Virus record (IMG/VR): IMGVR_UViG_2636416161_000013
Coordinates: 1 to 7,963 of that record
Origin: a virus
Taxonomy: Duplodnaviria > Heunggongvirae > Uroviricota > Caudoviricetes
DNA length: 7,963 bases
Reading direction: 5' to 3' (one strand)
Shown here: positions 1 to 7,810 of the stretch, piece by piece
How the letters are laid out: each line of letters starts with the position of its first letter
Position numbering within the stretch: the stretch's first letter is position 1
Program-made: the position numbers and the translations under genes
Notes under the pieces: model-generated
Told to the model about the DNA's origin: nothing
The model's input: the letters and a program-made list of their open reading frames with translations, nothing else
Database searches by the model: none

Positions 1-680
1 GCCACAGGAACCGAACGGGATTTTCCGTTTTTGGTGTTAAAGAACGTCACCCGGTTGCCAACGATATGCTCTCCACGTAGTTCCGATGCTTCACTCCATC
101 GGGCACCAGTAGAAAGACACAGAATGGCAACACGACGCGCATCACCCTCCAGTCGCTCAAGAAGCCGTTCAATCTCATCATCAGAAAGAAAGGCCATCTC
201 TGTGTTCTGAACTTTCAGTTTTCGTATACCGCGTACAGGGTTCGCGTTGTGAAAGACCTCAGCTTCAATCAGCACCGTGAACATGGTAGACAGAACGCAC
301 AAGTCACGATTAATGCTGGATGGCATTAAGCCGGCCTGTAATTTCTCTGACCGATACTCAAGCATAAATTTTTGCGTCATCTGGCTGGCACGCGGATCTC
401 CCATTTCACGAATCACTTTCTCCATCCGGATCCTGTAGGTATCACCGTAAGCCTGGTTACGGCCATCAAGCATCCACCATATATCAAGCAGCTCTGATAA
501 TCTCCGTCGATCAGCAGGTTTAGCCAGCCATGGGTTGTTATGGAAATTCTGTAAAATATGTTCTTTGAAGGCCTCCGCACTCCCTTTCCTGACAAAAATT
601 TTACGTATCCGTTTGCCGTACGCCCCTTGGGGCCTGATATCGAGCAGCCATCGCCCATCATCCATCTTTCTGATCGACAT
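1..680 (-). CDS. Tyrosine recombinase / phage integrase, P2/186-like class; N-terminal 226 codons only, C-terminal catalytic end lies beyond the left window edge
   Basis: Minus-strand frame with ATG at 680-678 and no in-frame stop down to position 3; not in the supplied ORF track because it runs off the edge. Translation MSIRKMDDGRWLLDIRPQGAYGKRIRKIF...VAILCLSTGARWSEASELRGEHIVGNRVTFFNTKNGKSRSVPV shows an arm-binding-type N-terminus and the conserved LSTGARxSEA box carrying the first catalytic Arg of tyrosine recombinases. Strong SD AAGGAGG lies 10 nt upstream, inside the 3' end of the primase gene; primase stop TAA (685-683) is 2 nt from this ATG. Confidence 0.8.
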   Translation of the reverse strand, partial: MSIRKMDDGRWLLDIRPQGAYGKRIRKIFVRKGSAEAFKEHILQNFHNNPWLAKPADRRRLSELLDIWWMLDGRNQAYGDTYRIRMEKVIREMGDPRASQMTQKFMLEYRSEKLQAGLMPSSINRDLCVLSTMFTVLIEAEVFHNANPVRGIRKLKVQNTEMAFLSDDEIERLLERLEGDARRVAILCLSTGARWSEASELRGEHIVGNRVTFFNTKNGKSRSVPV

Positions 681-682
681 AC

Positions 683-3352
683 TTAAGCCCCCTCCTTGTT
701 ACTAAATATCCAGCATTTCAATACCTCCTTCTCTCTGGCCTCGGCTATTCCCCTCCCGGCGTTCGCCTGTCTGGATACCTCGCTACGGACGGGCTTGTAT
801 CCAATCAGCGATCGAGAACGGCCAGCCTTGAGAAGCTTTATCATTTCGGGATTGGTTTGGATCTTCACGTGGTGAACGGCGGCAACCTGCTCAAGTTGCG
901 GGATACTGACGGCAAACTCATTCTGCCGTCCCTTGCCAAAATGATTTACGCCGTATGCTGTGATGCCGTCCAGATAGTCGAACGCCTCCCAGAACGCCAT
1001 CACTTCCGGCAAGTCATCCATTACCGCTTTAGCCTGCTCCTCTGCCATTCGCTCCAGTTCCAGACATGTGGCATCAAGCCATTCATCCGGGATATCAATA
1101 ACGCATTTCAGCGCCCTGACCAGTGCAATTAGTTGCGCGTGATTTTTGGCAATACGCTGATGGCGAATATTCTCGCAACCGTAAAGGCGGGTTGTTTCAG
1201 AATCCGAGAGTGCCATAAACAGATCCATAATCGCCCGCTCCTGGCTTACTGCCCGATGGATAAAACCTGATACCTGCTCAACGGGGTAAAGCTCCAGCCG
1301 TTTTGCTGCCAGTCGGCTATCTGGTGAGTGGCGTTTTTTATCGGTGTATATACGTACCAGACGCTCGATAATTGCCGATGAGGCGTTTACCGTGGCATTC
1401 TGCGCAATCACGACAGCCCCTTTAAAAACGGGGTCATATGTGGCGTTATCATTAGTTTTAACACCACGTACCCCAATACCACCGCCGTTATAGAGGCTTT
1501 TCAGGTTATCAAAGTCAAACGCACCTCTTTTTTGCGCATTGTCCCCCCGGTCTGCTTCAATCAGAACAACAGGTAATCCGGCGACCTGTCCAAAAGTTCG
1601 CTTCCAGCCTGATTCCGATCCTTTGGTTGGATCAACACCTTCATAGTTGTCACGGCCACACAAACGCCAACAAAAATCAATCAGCGTTGTTTTACCCGTT
1701 CCAGGCTCTCCGGTAATCTCAAGAAAAGGGTAAGACGTGTTTTTCTGCCTGATTTGTTCGCTGAACAACGAACCCAGCCAGAAGGCCAGGGTAATAATTC
1801 CCTTTTCACCAAAAGCCAGCCAGAGATCTTCCACCCAGGATATTGTGAATTTATCCGGTTTTTTATAGTTAATCTGCAATATTGGTTTTTTATTCAATGG
1901 TTTTGCGTTTATGCCATCAATTTCAAAATAATCCTCTTCATTGATTTCGTAGGTTTTACCATTACAAACCGCGACATCATTAAACAGCCACGCGCCAATC
2001 TCTTTGTTGTATCCGATAAAATCCTGACCGATAACATTTTTTATTGCGGGAAGGTCATTTTTTATTAATGCATCAAGGTGCGCAGTCGTTCCGGTATAAA
2101 TACCGCCTTTTGCCACATGCAACAGGCGTTTTTTAAATTCAGATGCGGATGTTAATTGTCCTGATGTAAAGGTGTTTTTCACCGTCGCACCATCCGGGAA
2201 CGTAACACGGAAGTAATACCATGCTTCATCCGTGTCATTGTTTCGAATGTAATAAAGCGGCGCCGGGTTACAGTTTGCGATTTCTTTTACAGCGCCGGAT
2301 TCCTTAAGTGCAATTTTGCGCGCTTCATCTTCGTCAACATTTCGCTCATTTATGACGCGTTCAACAGCCTTCATATGGCGCTCAATATCCAGTTTGAACC
2401 AGAAAACACGGTTATCAAAAGTAAAATGAAATTCCTTTCGCTCACGAAAGGAAAACATTATCAGCGCCTTATCTCTCGGAGATTTTGCCAGCAATAAATC
2501 ACCGTAATAACGGTATCTTTTCACATCATGGCCACGCAGCTTTCCGGCGATGTGTAAATCATTCCAGTCGCGTTTATTACTGTTTTTTCCTGGTAACGCC
2601 GCTGCCGTTCTCCAGCCGTCTTCGGCGCTGCGTTCTGCATGTTTTTTCGCATAACGCTCACCCGCACGCCCGTTATCCAGCGCCCACACGATAACCGGAC
2701 GGGGATTATCCCCGCACAGCTTCGCCAGCTCTTCCAGCGCCTTATCAGGGTAGTTTACGGCAGACATGACAGAAACGGCCGCAATGCCATTCTGGTTAAG
2801 GCTGATGGCATCAAAGATACCCTCACAAATCCAGATTTCTTTGGCCTTGCTTAAATCATCTCCCGGATAAGCCCACCACAACCCCTTGTAGCTGCCGGAA
2901 AAATTCGCCTTGCGCGCGAAGCGTTCCGGTCGGTCTATGATGCGCTCCCACCACACGCCGTCAGCCAGTGTAAAACGCACAGTAGCGGCCTGTTCGCCGC
3001 TTTCCTTGTCCTGGTATCGCTCCTGAGTAAATGCTCCCTTCAGTGGCTCCACAGCAATATTGCGTGCTTCCAGAAGATAAGCTGTCGCCGCTGCGTATGG
3101 ATTGTCTTTCGTGCTGATATAGCGATCTGACCATGATGAAAACACATCCGGGTAAAGTTCTTTGGTCAACAGGTCTGTACCGCATTTATTTTCGCGCCCA
3201 CAGTGCACGATGTACGGCCTTTCAAGGCTGGTAAAGAGCTCCTTCTTTCCACATTGCGGACAAACACCATACCGGAGGTAGTTATTTTCTTCTTTGAAGT
3301 TGTAATCACGGATAAGACGGTTAATAATCTCTTTTCTGGTGTTATGTTTCAT
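683..3352 (-). CDS. P4 alpha-like bifunctional DNA primase / helicase (zinc ribbon, EGYATA/TOPRIM-like primase domain, P-loop NTPase)
   Basis: 889-aa ORF. CPQC...HCGRENKCG zinc-ribbon (about 3179-3262); ICEGIFDAISL primase motif resembling the EGYATA signature (about 2798-2830); Walker A GEPGTGKT verified on the nucleotides at 1688-1711; Walker B-like VVLIEAD (about 1550-1570). SD GGGGG about 8 nt upstream of the ATG at 3352. Confidence 0.9.
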   Translation of the reverse strand: MKHNTRKEIINRLIRDYNFKEENNYLRYGVCPQCGKKELFTSLERPYIVHCGRENKCGTDLLTKELYPDVFSSWSDRYISTKDNPYAAATAYLLEARNIAVEPLKGAFTQERYQDKESGEQAATVRFTLADGVWWERIIDRPERFARKANFSGSYKGLWWAYPGDDLSKAKEIWICEGIFDAISLNQNGIAAVSVMSAVNYPDKALEELAKLCGDNPRPVIVWALDNGRAGERYAKKHAERSAEDGWRTAAALPGKNSNKRDWNDLHIAGKLRGHDVKRYRYYGDLLLAKSPRDKALIMFSFRERKEFHFTFDNRVFWFKLDIERHMKAVERVINERNVDEDEARKIALKESGAVKEIANCNPAPLYYIRNNDTDEAWYYFRVTFPDGATVKNTFTSGQLTSASEFKKRLLHVAKGGIYTGTTAHLDALIKNDLPAIKNVIGQDFIGYNKEIGAWLFNDVAVCNGKTYEINEEDYFEIDGINAKPLNKKPILQINYKKPDKFTISWVEDLWLAFGEKGIITLAFWLGSLFSEQIRQKNTSYPFLEITGEPGTGKTTLIDFCWRLCGRDNYEGVDPTKGSESGWKRTFGQVAGLPVVLIEADRGDNAQKRGAFDFDNLKSLYNGGGIGVRGVKTNDNATYDPVFKGAVVIAQNATVNASSAIIERLVRIYTDKKRHSPDSRLAAKRLELYPVEQVSGFIHRAVSQERAIMDLFMALSDSETTRLYGCENIRHQRIAKNHAQLIALVRALKCVIDIPDEWLDATCLELERMAEEQAKAVMDDLPEVMAFWEAFDYLDGITAYGVNHFGKGRQNEFAVSIPQLEQVAAVHHVKIQTNPEMIKLLKAGRSRSLIGYKPVRSEVSRQANAGRGIAEAREKEVLKCWIFSNKEGA

Positions 3353-3398: not shown

Positions 3399-3698
3399 TT
3401 ACTCGTTGCTTATTGCTTTGGCAATCCCGGCGGTTTCGGCGCTATGCCATGAAAAAATTCCGCCGGATGAATGCATACCAGATTTTATTGATTGTAATTC
3501 CCTATAAATAATGTTAGACAGAGATGCAATTTCTTCATTTATAATTTCTGCTGATGCTCTGCCATTTTTATCGTCAAAAACCACAGATATTAAACTGACG
3601 AGATTAATCACATCTGTGAGATCTTCCTTTGCACTTTCTGTAAAAAAGCCAACATATTCTCTATCTAAAAAATTTTCGCTATTCTGACGTTTAGACAT
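3399..3698 (-). CDS. Hypothetical protein, 99 aa, moderately acidic, AT-rich gene
   Basis: ORF with ATG at 3698 and SD GGGGAG 5 nt upstream; stop TAA at 3401-3399. I counted about 15 Asp+Glu against 9 Lys+Arg. Visibly more AT-rich than flanking genes. No motif recognised. Confidence 0.6.
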   Translation of the reverse strand: MSKRQNSENFLDREYVGFFTESAKEDLTDVINLVSLISVVFDDKNGRASAEIINEEIASLSNIIYRELQSIKSGMHSSGGIFSWHSAETAGIAKAISNE

Positions 3699-3765
3699 AA
3701 AAACTCCCCGACCCGTTAAGGCCGAAATATAAATTTAATTCAGTTATCAGTTGGTAATTCGGGAA

Positions 3766-3996
3766 TCAGGCGGAAAGCTGCGTCACCTTCAACGCCCTGA
3801 AATGTGTCATTCCCAGCTCTTCCAGCCCTTCGGCTGCGCGGCGTATGGCTTCGCCCGGTCCCGTTCCGTATACCGTTGCATGTGCATGTGCATGTGCATG
3901 TTTGGTTAACCCACGTTTATTAACGGCATAACCCAACACAAAGAAACGTTTTTCACCACTGCCATTATTTTTACGGGATGTTGAACGGGTTTTCAT
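3766..3996 (-). CDS. Hypothetical protein, 76 aa, containing an internal (His-Ala)4 repeat
   Basis: ATG at 3996 overlaps the stop of the upstream ORF in an ATGA arrangement (translational coupling). Encodes KHAHAHAHAT from a hexanucleotide tandem repeat. No family recognised. Confidence 0.6.
   Translation of the reverse strand: MKTRSTSRKNNGSGEKRFFVLGYAVNKRGLTKHAHAHAHATVYGTGPGEAIRRAAEGLEELGMTHFRALKVTQLSA
3876..3899. repeat. Perfect hexanucleotide tandem repeat (GCATGT)x4 on plus = (CATGCA)x4 in sense, inside the 76-aa CDS
   Basis: Direct reading: gcatgt gcatgt gcatgt gcatgt at 3876-3899; in frame it encodes His-Ala x4. Confidence 0.9.
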
Positions 3997-4181
3997 TTCT
4001 TCACCTTTACCACTGATGCTGTGAGTTCTTCTTCTGGCAACTGATATTTCGGCGCAATTTCTTCCGTATACCTGATAGCGTCCCTTGCCGCTTTTCCTTT
4101 TGATTTATATTTATATGTGGTCCGGTAGTTTTCTTCCTCTCCTGTTACCACATTACGCAATTTAATATGAATCTCGTACAT
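3993..4181 (-). CDS. Hypothetical small protein, 62 aa (MYEIHIKLRN...)
   Basis: I prefer the internal ATG at 4181 over the track start at 4211: it has SD GGAGGGG 5 nt upstream and sits 2 nt after the stop of the preceding ORF, whereas 4211 has no usable SD and overlaps the upstream gene. Lys/Glu-rich; no motif recognised. Confidence 0.55.
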   Translation of the reverse strand: MYEIHIKLRNVVTGEEENYRTTYKYKSKGKAARDAIRYTEEIAPKYQLPEEELTASVVKVKK

Positions 4182-4183
4182 CG

Positions 4184-4366
4184 TTACCCCTCCATGATTT
4201 TTACTGCGCATTTGTGGGTTAATCGCCCCTGTTCATTCGTGCGGCTGTACTCCATGCGGCTGGCAGCACGCAGGGCATCATCACAGGTCTGATATTCCCT
4301 GACATGAAAAAACTGACGAACGTCGCCGCTCTGGCAGTTAATCAGGGTGATAAGGAGCTTAAACAT
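4184..4366 (-). CDS. Hypothetical small protein, 60 aa (MFKLLITLINCQSGD...)
   Basis: I prefer the ATG at 4366 (SD GGGAGG 6 nt upstream) over the track start at 4444, which is a GTG. It overlaps the stop of the upstream ORF as ATGTTTAA. No motif recognised. Confidence 0.55.
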   Translation of the reverse strand: MFKLLITLINCQSGDVRQFFHVREYQTCDDALRAASRMEYSRTNEQGRLTHKCAVKIMEG

Positions 4367-4886
4367 TGCACGCCTCCCGGATACGAATACGGGCAACAAA
4401 GACCAGACGGGATGCCGGAAGCAGGGCGCGCGCTTCGCGCTCACTGGCAGCGGTAACGGTATGAAGGCGAATATTTTTACCGTGGCACTGCATAAAGCGC
4501 CAGATAAAATCAGGGCGTGTTGATATAGCCATTTTGGCGGCTCCTTGATTAAGTTTACGGAGTCTCGCCAGCACGCTGCTAAACATGGTGGCGGGACGTA
4601 ACAGGGTTAGCAGACTGGCAATCAAGGAACCAGCGAGCGCAAAGGCTCCCCCATTACGCCCCGCCATAATACGGGGTAGGGTGGAATTACGGGCACAAAA
4701 AAACCGCATTACGGAAATATAGCGGCTACCCGCTTGATTGTTCAGGCTGCTAAACCCGGCACCCGCTTTATGAGGTGCGGGCAAACGATACGCCATGACA
4801 AAAAAGCGAGTCAAGCAATATTGCAAATTATTTTTGCTCACTTGCGCTGAGTGATTGATTTTAAAGAGTAAAAAAGCCATAATCAT
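4359..4886 (-). CDS. Hypothetical protein, 175 aa from the ATG at 4886, or about 145 aa if translation starts at the ATG at 4796 (MAYRLPAPHKAG...)
   Basis: Long minus-strand ORF whose stop overlaps the next gene start. The first 30 codons are AT-rich with only a weak SD (AGGCAGAA), so the true start is uncertain. No family recognised. Confidence 0.5.
   Translation of the reverse strand: MIMAFLLFKINHSAQVSKNNLQYCLTRFFVMAYRLPAPHKAGAGFSSLNNQAGSRYISVMRFFCARNSTLPRIMAGRNGGAFALAGSLIASLLTLLRPATMFSSVLARLRKLNQGAAKMAISTRPDFIWRFMQCHGKNIRLHTVTAASEREARALLPASRLVFVARIRIREACNV
4855..4883 (+). promoter_or_regulatory. Candidate sigma70-type promoter on the plus strand (TTGATT -17 bp- CATAAT), antisense to the small-ORF operon
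   Basis: -35-like TTGATT at 4855-4860 and -10-like CATAAT at 4878-4883 with a 17-bp spacer; a plus-strand hairpin/T-tract lies about 70-100 bp downstream. Motif match only, in an AT-rich region; weak evidence. Confidence 0.3.
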
Positions 4887-5080: not shown

Positions 5081-5401
5081 TTATTCAACTCTGGCGCTAC
5101 CGGATTCTCTCTCCCTTTTCTTTTTGGCGTTTTCGTATGGGTTATTCACTTTGGCAATAACTGGCGGATTACGTAGCCACCACAAAACATCACTTAACAG
5201 CCAGGTACATGAGCAACGCCCCAAAGAGTGACGAGGAGGAAAAGCACCGATCTTCTCCAGTTCCCAGCGGCGGGAGCGTGAAAGCGTGGTCATTTTTTTA
5301 CACTTCTCTTCCCTGATGCGTTCTTCGCAGTCAAAGCCATACTCGGCGAGTATGGTGCGGCGCTGTTCTGGAGTTGGTGGAATGAATGCGGATTGAGTCA
5401 T
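5081..5401 (-). CDS. alpA: AlpA-family (prophage CP4-57 regulatory / P4 Vis-like) helix-turn-helix transcriptional regulator, 106 aa with an N-terminal extension
   Basis: Translation contains MTTLSRSRRWELEKIGAFPPRHSLGRCSCTWLLSDVLWWL, matching the AlpA-type HTH pattern (SRST-like turn, G.FP, LG, W, Wl) as I recall it. ATG at 5401 with SD GGGGGA 4 nt upstream; an internal ATG at 5293 would give the about 70-aa core only. Confidence 0.8.
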   Translation of the reverse strand: MTQSAFIPPTPEQRRTILAEYGFDCEERIREEKCKKMTTLSRSRRWELEKIGAFPPRHSLGRCSCTWLLSDVLWWLRNPPVIAKVNNPYENAKKKRERESGSARVE

Positions 5402-5496
5402 ATTTCCCCCTATGTTTCTGAACTTTCGGGGGAGATTTTTGTTTTACGGAGTTTTGAAAGCAAGTATTAAAGGTCTTATTAAGATGCTTGCTGGTC

Positions 5497-6549
5497 TTAC
5501 TGAGATGATGCTTTAATCCATCTTGATATAGTACTTTTATCAAAGCGCATATTGAGTCCTGCCTCTCTTGCTTCCGCGGTCAATATATCAGCAAGTTTTA
5601 CCGGATTGTTTTCGAGTTCTTTATAATGAATAACAAGCATCGCACGAAAAAAATCCTTCATTGTTTTAGATAATCGTTCTATATTGTTTTTATTGGTGCA
5701 TATGTCTTTCTCTCCATCCTCAGAACTTAATATATTGTTACCCGCACACAAATATAAAGTATCTGCCAATGGATTAACATAATCTTTTCTTAACTCGCTA
5801 TTGGAGTTTGTAGCATTTTGTATTTTTAAAAAATCATTCTTTAAGATATATAAATCACCAATATCAAAAGAAACATCCTCAGTAACAATTAGTCCTATAT
5901 GTATATCAACGTCAGAAGCAATTATAATATTGCTATTAATTATTCGGTTGGCTTTAAACTTCTTATTAAAATCATAGTTGGCAAAAAAACTTCCCCCCAA
6001 AGCGAAAATGCCGCCTATTTCAACAAAATACTTATGGTATTTTTCTTGAATACCTTTAAATACTGGTGGCACAACTGCCACAGCTCTTTCATCCGTTGCT
6101 ATTCGATATACACTATATATGTGATAATTTTCCCCATAATATACCCCCCTGTTATAATAATTTAACAAAGCAAATGCAGTATCAATTGCTATGTCACCAA
6201 ATTTGGGCGCTACATATGAATGACTTAGAGATTCGCACATTGAATCAAATATAATTCTCGACTTGGTTTTTATATAATTAAAACCATGGTGTTCTGCCGC
6301 CCTTTCTGAAATGGCATCAAGATCAGATAACCGTGATTTACACGGTTCTGAATCCATAAACTTACGCAGACAATCGAAATTAACCACATCTTTTTCATCT
6401 GGGATATTTAATACTCCATATGCAGATTCAATTTTTATACAAATACGAATGCAGCCTGTCACAGCCCAATGAATAAGATCGTCAATATCGCAGTCTAATA
6501 ACTTTGCCGCGCGCTCAATAGGATAGTAATCTCTTAGTGGTAACGTCAT
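5497..6549 (-). CDS. Hypothetical protein, 350 aa, AT-rich gene immediately downstream of the integrase; function unknown
   Basis: ORF starts 16 bp after the integrase stop on the same strand with a weak SD. Asn/Ile/Tyr/Asp-rich product. N-terminal YYPIERAAKLLDCDIDDLIHWAVTG and C-terminal KSTISRWIK segments look HTH-like but match no motif I can name; no P-loop or other catalytic signature seen. Confidence 0.75.
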   Translation of the reverse strand: MTLPLRDYYPIERAAKLLDCDIDDLIHWAVTGCIRICIKIESAYGVLNIPDEKDVVNFDCLRKFMDSEPCKSRLSDLDAISERAAEHHGFNYIKTKSRIIFDSMCESLSHSYVAPKFGDIAIDTAFALLNYYNRGVYYGENYHIYSVYRIATDERAVAVVPPVFKGIQEKYHKYFVEIGGIFALGGSFFANYDFNKKFKANRIINSNIIIASDVDIHIGLIVTEDVSFDIGDLYILKNDFLKIQNATNSNSELRKDYVNPLADTLYLCAGNNILSSEDGEKDICTNKNNIERLSKTMKDFFRAMLVIHYKELENNPVKLADILTAEAREAGLNMRFDKSTISRWIKASSQ

Positions 6550-6565
6550 TCTTTTCGCTCACATA

Positions 6566-7768
6566 TTATTTATCTTTAACCATTTTTTCTAAACATTCAA
6601 GCCAGTCATTTAGAGCCTTTAATTTAAATGGGATATACTGGCTAAGATTATAGTTAAATTCTGCGGAGCCTGCATTATATACGTGACCTAATAATGACTC
6701 GACAATATGAGGCATTACCCCCATGTTGTTTAATCCAGTTGAAAATGTCCGTCTTAAATCGTGTAGTGTCCATTTTTCATTATGCCCGAATATTTTATAC
6801 ATTCTGCGACCTTTCAGAGAAACAGCTCTATGCGTTCTCTCCTCACCCAAAAGTAAGCCCGTCCTCCCGGTTTCCTGTTTTAGCTCTTTTAACCAGTCTC
6901 TTATGCCTTCGGGAATTGGCCGAATAATCTTTTTATTACTTTTACTGTTATTTCTTGGAACAATCCAAACCCATTCATTAAAATCCCACTCAATCCAATG
7001 AGAACGGCGAATCTCTACAGTTCTAGCCCCAAAGACAATAAGCAACTTTATTAATCTAGAAAAATAAATATCCCGATGTTTCTCCTTTGCAAAATACCAA
7101 AGATCTGATAGTTCGGCATCACTCAAAACACGGTCGCGCTGTCCGGCAGATTCCCCTACATCGGTTAACGTTAAATGAACCAGGGCATCACTGATGGCAT
7201 AACGCCGAACATTGCAAAACCGCAATGCCTGCTTGGAGAGCTGAAACATACGCCCCGCCGTTTTTGAACTTATAGCGCGAATCTCATCAAAACATTTTAC
7301 CCAATGGCGAGTATCGCACCGTGATAACGGATAATGGCCTATTCTGGGGTAGACATGTTTGCAGAATTGCGCCCTTATCAATTCCTCATCTTTGCGCTTA
7401 TGTCTTGCATAATTGACCAACCAATATTCCAACGCATCTCGAACAGTAACAGGAGCACGGGATTCTTCAGTAAAAAGTTGGAGTTCAATTTTTGGATCAA
7501 GACCATTAGCCAACCATTGACGGCAACGCTCACGCCACATCCTGGCATCTTTCAGACTAATATCAGGGTAATTCCCTAGAGTAAGACGAATAACTGAACT
7601 CTCACGCCCTCCAAGGCGATATGAAAAAACCCAGCTCACATGCCCTTTAGTTGATAACCTGACCCCTAACCCCTCTCCGTCAGCAAGCATTTCAACACGA
7701 TCCCTATGCGTTCCTTGCAGCGCCTTTAGTTTCCTGTCGCTGAGCTTATTCGTTCCAGACATCATCAC
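6566..7768 (-). CDS. int: Site-specific tyrosine integrase, P4 / CP4-57 family (tRNA-island type)
   Basis: 400-aa ORF. N-terminal arm-binding-like region LSDRKLKAL...GLGVRLSTKGHVSWVFSYRLGG...LGNYP.ISLKDAR and C-terminal catalytic region HDLRRTFST...LLGHVYN...Y. The track start at 7768 is a GTG; the first ATGs are at 7765 and 7762. Confidence 0.9.
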   Translation of the reverse strand: MMMSGTNKLSDRKLKALQGTHRDRVEMLADGEGLGVRLSTKGHVSWVFSYRLGGRESSVIRLTLGNYPDISLKDARMWRERCRQWLANGLDPKIELQLFTEESRAPVTVRDALEYWLVNYARHKRKDEELIRAQFCKHVYPRIGHYPLSRCDTRHWVKCFDEIRAISSKTAGRMFQLSKQALRFCNVRRYAISDALVHLTLTDVGESAGQRDRVLSDAELSDLWYFAKEKHRDIYFSRLIKLLIVFGARTVEIRRSHWIEWDFNEWVWIVPRNNSKSNKKIIRPIPEGIRDWLKELKQETGRTGLLLGEERTHRAVSLKGRRMYKIFGHNEKWTLHDLRRTFSTGLNNMGVMPHIVESLLGHVYNAGSAEFNYNLSQYIPFKLKALNDWLECLEKMVKDK

Positions 7769-7777
7769 CGTTCCGAT

Positions 7778-7800
7778 ATTGATACACGCATTGATACACG
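7778..7800. repeat. Two tandem direct copies of ATTGATACACG (7778-7788 and 7790-7800, 12-bp period) 10-30 bp upstream of the integrase start
   Basis: Read directly from the sequence; the position in the int 5' region suggests a protein-binding (operator or arm-type) site. Confidence 0.7.
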
Positions 7801-7810
7801 TGAAATATTA

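Follow-up and report, generated by a model that had tools for sequence, protein, structure and literature searches.

Hexanucleotide variable-number tandem repeats (VNTRs) have been described in E. coli, in which the changes occur by whole units, and longer arrays are less stable and change at higher rates (PMC3777172). The satellite P4 is the closest described system for the surrounding genes. The left operon of P4 (NC_001609) contains ORF88/vis, the CI RNA with icd, epsilon, ORF151, ORF106 and alpha. The Rfam profiles C4 and isrK detect the P4 CI RNA and its target in satellites (PMC10111431).

In this analysis, a window of 7,963 nt (the whole stretch of DNA that was analysed) was investigated. 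Its - strand carries a 76-aa ORF, here called the HA gene, in which a perfect hexanucleotide array is translated as four His-Ala pairs.

Genomic context and coding status of the HA gene

Comparative genome analysis showed that the window was 99.9% identical to E. coli NCTC9082, and that the repeat region was 100% identical to that of strain DLI.6n. In both strains, the island site was located between hpt and gcd. The order along the - strand was integrase, 350-aa gene, AlpA-like regulator, isrK-type RNA, C4/CI RNA, Icd-like domain, three small ORFs (60, 62, and 76 aa), 99-aa ORF, and primase. The features of the window were as follows:

6566-7768, - strand: integrase
5497-6549, - strand: 350-aa gene between the integrase gene and the AlpA-like gene (no match in Pfam, NCBIfam, PHROGs, or PADLOC)
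5081-5401, - strand: AlpA-like regulator
4697..4778, - strand: isrK-type RNA (RF01394; 52.1 bits against a gathering score of 50)
4584..4671, - strand: C4/CI-type antisense immunity RNA (RF01695; 74.7 bits against a gathering score of 45, E 1.2e-13)
4383..4508, - strand: Icd-like domain (NF033153), residues 127-168 of ORF 4359-4886 (NCBIfam E 8e-14)
4184..4366, - strand: 60-aa ORF of the same operon, first of the small ORFs that follow the Icd-like gene (ORF list)
4001..4007, - strand: Shine-Dalgarno-like AAGGTGA, ending 4 nt 5' of the ATG at 3996, with its core GGTG 5 nt 5' (direct reading)
3993..4181, - strand: 62-aa ORF directly upstream of the HA ORF (ORF list, sequence)
3766..3996, - strand: 76-aa ORF carrying the tract, stop codon included in the coordinates (ORF list; RefSeq hypothetical protein WP_032235517.1)
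3877..3901, - strand, units running from 3900 to 3877: hexanucleotide array (CATGCA)x4 (Tandem Repeats Finder, sequence, shuffle control, gene extraction)
3399..3698, - strand: 99-aa ORF between the HA gene and the primase (ORF list)
683..3352, - strand: 889-aa Toprim primase (P4 alpha-like), the last large gene of the operon (Pfam Toprim_2; phrog_1139 E 2.8e-302)

The set of genes that marks a P4-like satellite, namely an integrase, an AlpA-like regulator, the C4/CI RNA with an Icd-like domain, and a Toprim alpha-type primase, was found complete and in P4 order. Gene order places the HA gene in the early/replication operon of a P4-like satellite, with the CI-RNA/Icd immunity region on one side and the primase on the other. 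Of the P4 capsid-size and late-control genes (Sid, Psu and Delta), an ogr/Delta-like gene was annotated outside the window, sid and psu were not annotated, and a P2-family major capsid gene (PF05125) was present instead.

A complete P4-type immunity region was observed at 4584-4778 on the - strand, consisting of the isrK-type RNA and the C4/CI antisense RNA, followed by the Icd-like domain. By analogy with P4, the isrK-type RNA would be the kind of target region with which the CI RNA pairs (PMC10111431). In ORF 4359-4886 (- strand, 175 aa), the similarity to Icd was limited to the last ~42 residues; the RefSeq 'Icd-like protein' CDS spans both RNA genes, and so is probably over-extended at its 5' end.

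Several other features of the island were observed. At 5440-6464 of the window, comparison with loci L001, L025, and L041 showed that the 350-aa gene was replaced by a non-alignable 346-aa gene in near-identical islands of the DLI.6n type. This position looks like a variable cargo slot, by analogy with those holding anti-phage systems in P4-like satellites (PMC9122126). A tandem 12-mer, ATTGATACACGC followed by ATTGATACACGT, was found at 7778-7801, 10 nt upstream of the start codon of the integrase gene (7768). P4 has tandem 12-nt attP arm repeats of another sequence in the equivalent place with respect to its int gene, and the 12-mers of the window are therefore probably arm-type integrase binding sites. 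A second integrase-like gene (333 aa, Int_N and Phage_integrase) was located at window positions 1-680 on the - strand and ran past the window (7979-8980 of L001); it starts two bases after the primase stop and was kept in all relatives of the island, including that of Yersinia. Outside the window, the ogr/Delta-like zinc-finger gene and the P2-family major capsid gene (PF05125, 423 aa) were found at 4193-6806 of L001 and 13491-16103 of L040. The capsid gene adjoined a 236-aa gene of no assigned function, and a PemK/MazF toxin-antitoxin pair was located at the far end of the island. In the related islands L031 and L037, a capsid-like gene was located between alpA and the immunity region instead.

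The distant homologues of the HA gene were located directly upstream of a gene of the P4-epsilon family ('Derepression', PF25738; E 2e-26 for the adjoining gene) and a Toprim primase. The gene order was kept with the Yersinia homologue, whose neighbours are as in E. coli, and in metagenomic elements. The HA protein itself had no Pfam match to the P4 epsilon/Derepression family (PF25738). The 99-aa ORF was considered as a diverged P4 epsilon and rejected, with no similarity to the PF25738 family or to P4 epsilon; this ORF, in the epsilon slot of the distant relatives, may be a non-homologous replacement. The 60-, 62-, and 76-aa ORFs showed by eye a common strand-turn-strand-helix-strand pattern that would suggest tandem paralogues, and this relationship found no support in an hhalign comparison (probability below 1%).

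The HA gene was extracted from 23 related loci, which gave 19 distinct alleles. The pN/pS in the sense frame was 0.22, and the 50 variable sites were distributed 12/13/25 over codon positions 1/2/3. The TGA of the upstream 62-aa ORF (3995-3993) overlaps the ATG of the HA ORF (3996-3994) as ATGA, an arrangement that would be typical of translational coupling. Judged from the pN/pS, the Shine-Dalgarno-like site, the ATGA overlap and the homologues, ORF 3766..3996 is a real protein-coding gene, and the placing of the tract in frame within a genuine gene by the initial annotation was upheld. On the + strand, a 52-aa ORF (3751-3909, '...CMCMCMCMFG') overlaps the tract, and the pN/pS of its frame was 1.40. 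A second antisense frame with a pN/pS of 0.23 was rejected as coding, as it contains a stop and no ORF of at least 40 aa; its low value is the mirror effect expected from the wobble position that it has in common with the sense frame.

Word-indexed protein search revealed 14 clusters, nearly all from E. coli or Shigella, with one from Yersinia enterocolitica (63% identity). An exhaustive HMMER scan of 1.84 billion representatives gave only 15 hits, among them full-length relatives at 35-53% identity; the long repetitive proteins P0022 and P0023 from this search were set aside as spurious. The 76-aa protein had no match in Pfam, NCBIfam, PHROGs, or PADLOC, and tblastn against 50,697 phage records, including P4, gave no match. 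In a profile search of PDB sequences, Photorhabdus beta-propeller lectins matched weakly over the whole sequence (E 2.4e-4) but with no single stretch passing, and these matches were judged spurious. No earlier description of the HA locus or of its protein family was found in the literature. The HA gene is a conserved, uncharacterised gene in the early operon of P4-like satellites.

Frameshifted or truncated versions of the HA gene were present in a few E. coli contigs (P0012, P0013, P0014, and P0020). One broken version reads the repeat in another frame ('...TCTC...'), and one is located on a 5.19-Mb contig. They suggest that some lineages can do without the gene, unless the broken versions are sequencing errors.

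Copy number and dynamics of the hexanucleotide tract

Tandem Repeats Finder showed a perfect period-6 tract of 25 nt at 3877-3901 (4.2 copies, 100% matches). Direct reading of the + strand gave T(GCATGT)x4 for 3877-3901, with (GCATGT)x4 itself at 3878-3901; base 3901 brings the periodic tract to 25 nt. On the coding strand, (CATGCA)x4 is translated as HAHAHAHA, residues 33-40 of the protein. The repeat and its translation were therefore as first described, and only the coordinates given for them (3876-3899) were off by 1-2 nt, which is immaterial. When the window was shuffled 2000 times with its dinucleotide counts preserved, the longest perfect period-6 tract was most often 12 nt and never exceeded 17 nt, compared with the 25 nt observed. 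The four-unit array is thus beyond chance, as bacterial VNTRs with their perfect head-to-tail short units are, while an array of two units (12 nt) is just of chance length; two units are also the usual state of the HA gene in other genomes.

The copy number was compared among homologous loci. The HA locus was found in 66 of 5426 complete E. coli genomes by a 125-nt query centred on the tract. Among the 60 carriers listed, DLI.6n and NCTC9082 had four units (125-nt span) and all 58 others had two (112-113 nt); the identity bands left no room for three- or five-unit alleles in the other six carriers. In a set of 22 loci from species-representative genomes, JGI/ENA metagenomes, and IMG/VR, two units were found in 21 and four units in one. 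The scan of species-representative genomes gave one locus only, and so little cross-species information. The IMG/VR scan for alleles of at least three units found none.

In the protein collection, a 74-aa allele (P0002) had three units. A 78-aa allele (P0026), within the 90% cluster of the window's protein, had five units and was present in 12 contigs; the seven five-unit loci that were fetched came from seven separate samples (ENA and Logan assemblies). No member of this cluster was longer than 78 aa. The four-unit allele was indexed in 236 blocks of the sequence collection. The DNA of the three-, four-, and five-unit alleles was a perfect (CATGCA)n, and all changes were exact whole units. 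The copy number thus differs from strain to strain in whole units, at two, three, four, or five, as in VNTRs. The two-unit state was kept across all diverged lineages. At five loci the sequence was CATGCACACGCA, in which a synonymous change breaks up the DNA repeat and HAHA is kept, and YAHA was found at one locus (L012).

Two pairs of islands differed by a single unit. L001 (four units) and L025 (five units) were identical over 10,673 nt but for one 6-nt gap, and L003 (four units) and L027 (five units) were identical over 6,234 nt but for one 6-nt gap. Between the L001/L025 and L003/L027 backgrounds there were 42-52 mismatches per ~5 kb, and their cargo genes were unrelated. When the extra units were removed, the 219-nt gene was identical in the two-unit allele (K_EC180, L032), the four-unit allele, and the five-unit allele. 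The three-unit allele with its extra unit removed was identical to the two-unit alleles of another haplotype, and its island had a different integrase and a different site. The array therefore changed faster than its flanks and probably in recurrent, independent events, as VNTRs do, in two 4/5-unit pairs and in a three-unit allele on a third haplotype. The proposal that the length could vary without a frameshift was thus borne out by the four length classes and the two near-identical pairs; an identical copy number in all homologues and a non-coding ORF, either of which would have spoken against it, were both contradicted.

A change of one unit, free of point substitutions over 6-10 kb, is characteristic of slipped-strand mispairing at a VNTR and agrees with the behaviour of the E. 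coli 6-bp VNTRs (PMC3777172), and the two 4/5-unit pairs point to recurrent slippage. From these sequences, the expanded array has undergone two or more one-unit changes, or a single one and then a short recombination patch. The 551 nt around the repeat were identical in both 4/5-unit backgrounds, which is compatible with one mutation and a recombination patch.

The tract is quite probably a low-copy, in-frame hexanucleotide VNTR in a real gene for a small basic protein, driven by slippage and nearly neutral. The starting state would be the usual two-unit CATGCA CATGCA (HAHA), which is no longer than a chance repeat. On one haplotype the array would have expanded to four units, the state of the window. 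An array of four units would be long enough for further gain or loss of single units by slipped-strand mispairing in replication, giving alleles of four and five units. On a separate haplotype, two units would have become three. The protein would tolerate these changes, as the 6-nt unit always keeps the frame and the period of the dipeptide is that of a beta strand, such that the in/out pattern of the side chains would be kept and the surplus would bulge into the beta1-beta2 hairpin loop. With a frame-keeping unit and a strand-matched dipeptide, the length variation is therefore most likely, as we assume, a nearly neutral mutational by-product and not a device. The four-unit allele is common in its lineage (the 236 blocks), which also fits a mild advantage or hitch-hiking.

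Predicted structure and explanations for the length variation

The HA protein is small and basic (pI 10.7). AlphaFold models, built on a shallow 10-sequence alignment, predicted a single compact beta-beta-alpha-beta domain. The two-unit model (pLDDT 85) had a disordered, basic tail (1-15), beta1 (16-25), a turn (26-30), beta2 (31-40), a helix (43-56), and beta3 (60-70), with HAHA (residues 33-36) inside beta2 at pLDDT 96. The four-unit model had a disordered basic N-terminal tail of ~15 residues, beta1 (16-26), a loop (27-34), beta2 (35-44), a helix (47-60), and beta3 (63-74); its beta2 consisted of the last three units and TVYG. The beta1-beta2 loop grew from 26-30 in the two-unit model to 27-34 in the four-unit model, and the pLDDT there dropped to 71-78. 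The suggestion that the tract is a linker was not supported by these models, in which HAHA lies within beta2 of a compact domain and the extra units lie in the beta1-beta2 loop.

In the family alignment, tract positions 2 and 4 were mostly small or hydrophobic (A/V/I and A/T/V/I/Y), and the His positions were polar and variable (H, S or G at the first; H, K, R, L, E or N at the second). This fits a predicted beta2 with its Ala side toward the core and its His side exposed. Because the dipeptide repeat and the beta strand have the same period, added units could be absorbed by register sliding and a larger hairpin loop. The Foldseek matches in BFVD were all to small phage proteins that are uncharacterised, and none reached E <= 0.001. 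The fold matches were generic for a small fold, with ribosomal eL20/LX on top. Ribosomal eL20/LX, T7 Gp2, and AcrIE2, all small beta-beta-alpha-beta proteins, resembled the HA protein in fold only (7-19% identity, no shared motif found), and this resemblance is not evidence of shared function. Our best guess is that the HA protein would be a small accessory factor in the early programme of the satellite, binding nucleic acid or protein.

Other explanations of the length variation were weighed against a nearly neutral VNTR. Under adaptive tuning, the beta1-beta2 hairpin would contact a helper-phage or host target, and the number of units would retune affinity or specificity, kept by selection in an arms-race-like manner. 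The tract is at solvent-facing, variable hairpin positions according to the alignment and the AlphaFold models, relatives carry the P4 epsilon (helper derepression) family in the slot immediately downstream of the HA gene, and the expanded allele persists in many contigs. However, two units were kept in almost every lineage and host, the most diverged alleles included, the expansions were limited to two haplotypes, and the protein has generic fold matches and no known partner. Adaptive tuning is considered unlikely. Metal binding had been proposed in the initial annotation. Under this explanation, the HxHxHxH strand/loop would form a Ni/Zn/Cu site, and more units would give more or tighter binding. 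Four His alternating with Ala would fall on one face of an extended segment. The (HX)n loops of CDF/ZIP transporters bind metal. The histidine-rich protein Hpn of H. pylori binds Ni2+ (PMC5312948). On the other hand, the tract of the usual allele contains just two His, L012 has YAHA, and the homologues at 35-53% identity have HALA, SAKT, SAKA, GERV, GVHI, GIHY or GINY at this position. The His of the motif were thus not conserved across the family, as they would be in a family of histidine-rich proteins; no conserved Cys, His or Asp partners were found elsewhere in the HA protein, nor any match to a metal-binding family. Metal binding as the explanation is very doubtful, and any binding by the four-unit allele would be an incidental gain. 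Since the His are few in the common allele and not conserved in homologues, a conserved metal-binding role for the HA family is unlikely on the aligned sequences. The His-Ala array could also be seen as a 'length dial' on an exposed hairpin, whose slippage variants alter helper/host engagement or give a Ni/Zn-dependent interaction at four or more His and are kept by selection in particular hosts; we regard this as quite unlikely.

The tract could instead act as DNA or RNA, as a Z-DNA-prone run, an RNA hairpin or pause site, or part of an opposite-strand gene. No other perfectly alternating purine-pyrimidine run in the window was as long as the tract (25 nt; maximum 22 and mean 13 in the shuffles), and by this alternation it was the most Z-DNA-prone stretch of the window, which follows from the repeat unit's own sequence. 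In addition, the + strand scan flagged the tract as terminator-like, and the 52-aa + strand ORF overlaps it. However, the RNA fold of the region was no more stable than shuffles (z = 0.29), the terminator-like flag was a by-product of the TGCA/CATG palindromes in the unit with G-T pairs allowed, and the + strand frame, with its pN/pS of 1.40, was not conserved as coding. Most genomes carry only 12 nt of the tract, and so are without such an element. A role at the DNA or RNA level is highly improbable. The reading that the differences in unit number are assembly or sequencing errors is effectively refuted. Several variant loci did come from automated short-read assemblies (Logan), but a tract of 24-30 nt is far below read length, the four-unit allele is present in two finished chromosomes (NCTC9082 and DLI.6n) as well as in the 236 blocks, the five-unit loci came from separate samples, and every change was an exact whole unit.

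Comparison with described systems

The tract could be used as a marker to sub-type the satellite lineage associated with gcd. It also offers a natural illustration of a threshold effect, in which a chance-length two-unit repeat is stable species-wide and its four-unit derivative varies between otherwise identical islands. The comparison also brings to notice a conserved family of small basic proteins beside the helper-derepression slot of P4-like satellites. If the length changes were functional, a satellite would here be adjusting an interaction surface through slippage, which would be rare.

Compared with the left operon of P4, the island had an AlpA-like gene, a C4/CI RNA with an isrK-type target, an Icd-like domain, small ORFs, and a Toprim primase in the same order and on the same strand. 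However, P4 had no match to the HA protein, and the 99-aa ORF in the epsilon slot of the island was unlike epsilon. The island also has a second integrase-like gene and a P2-family capsid gene of its own, whereas P4 encodes no capsid protein.

The HA tract shares alternating His-X with Hpn (PMC5312948) and with the (HX)n loops of CDF/ZIP transporters, as the expanded alleles have four or five His; however, it is located in a beta hairpin of a folded 60-residue domain and not in a long disordered His-rich tail or loop. Like phase-variable contingency loci, it shows a repeat-mediated, reversible, high-frequency type of length change in a gene of an accessory element. Unlike them, its unit is a multiple of three inside the frame and its array is short, and it adds or removes His-Ala pairs and provides no on/off switch. 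Neither the frame shift nor the change of promoter spacing that defines contingency loci was found, and all alleles of two to five units keep the full frame.

A close likeness was to the hexanucleotide VNTRs used for MLVA of E. coli (TR3, TR4, TR7, and O157-10; PMC3777172), in which a 6-bp unit also lies in an ORF of the chromosome or of a mobile element. In these loci, insertions and deletions of whole units are ascribed to slipped-strand mispairing, and the flanks can be identical (PMC3777172). With 2-5 units, and mostly two, the HA tract is much less variable than typing loci of at least 10 units. The repeat had been called unusual, but variable 6-bp repeats are well-known polymorphisms of E. 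coli (PMC3777172), and the HA locus joins the many small coding VNTRs already described in this species.
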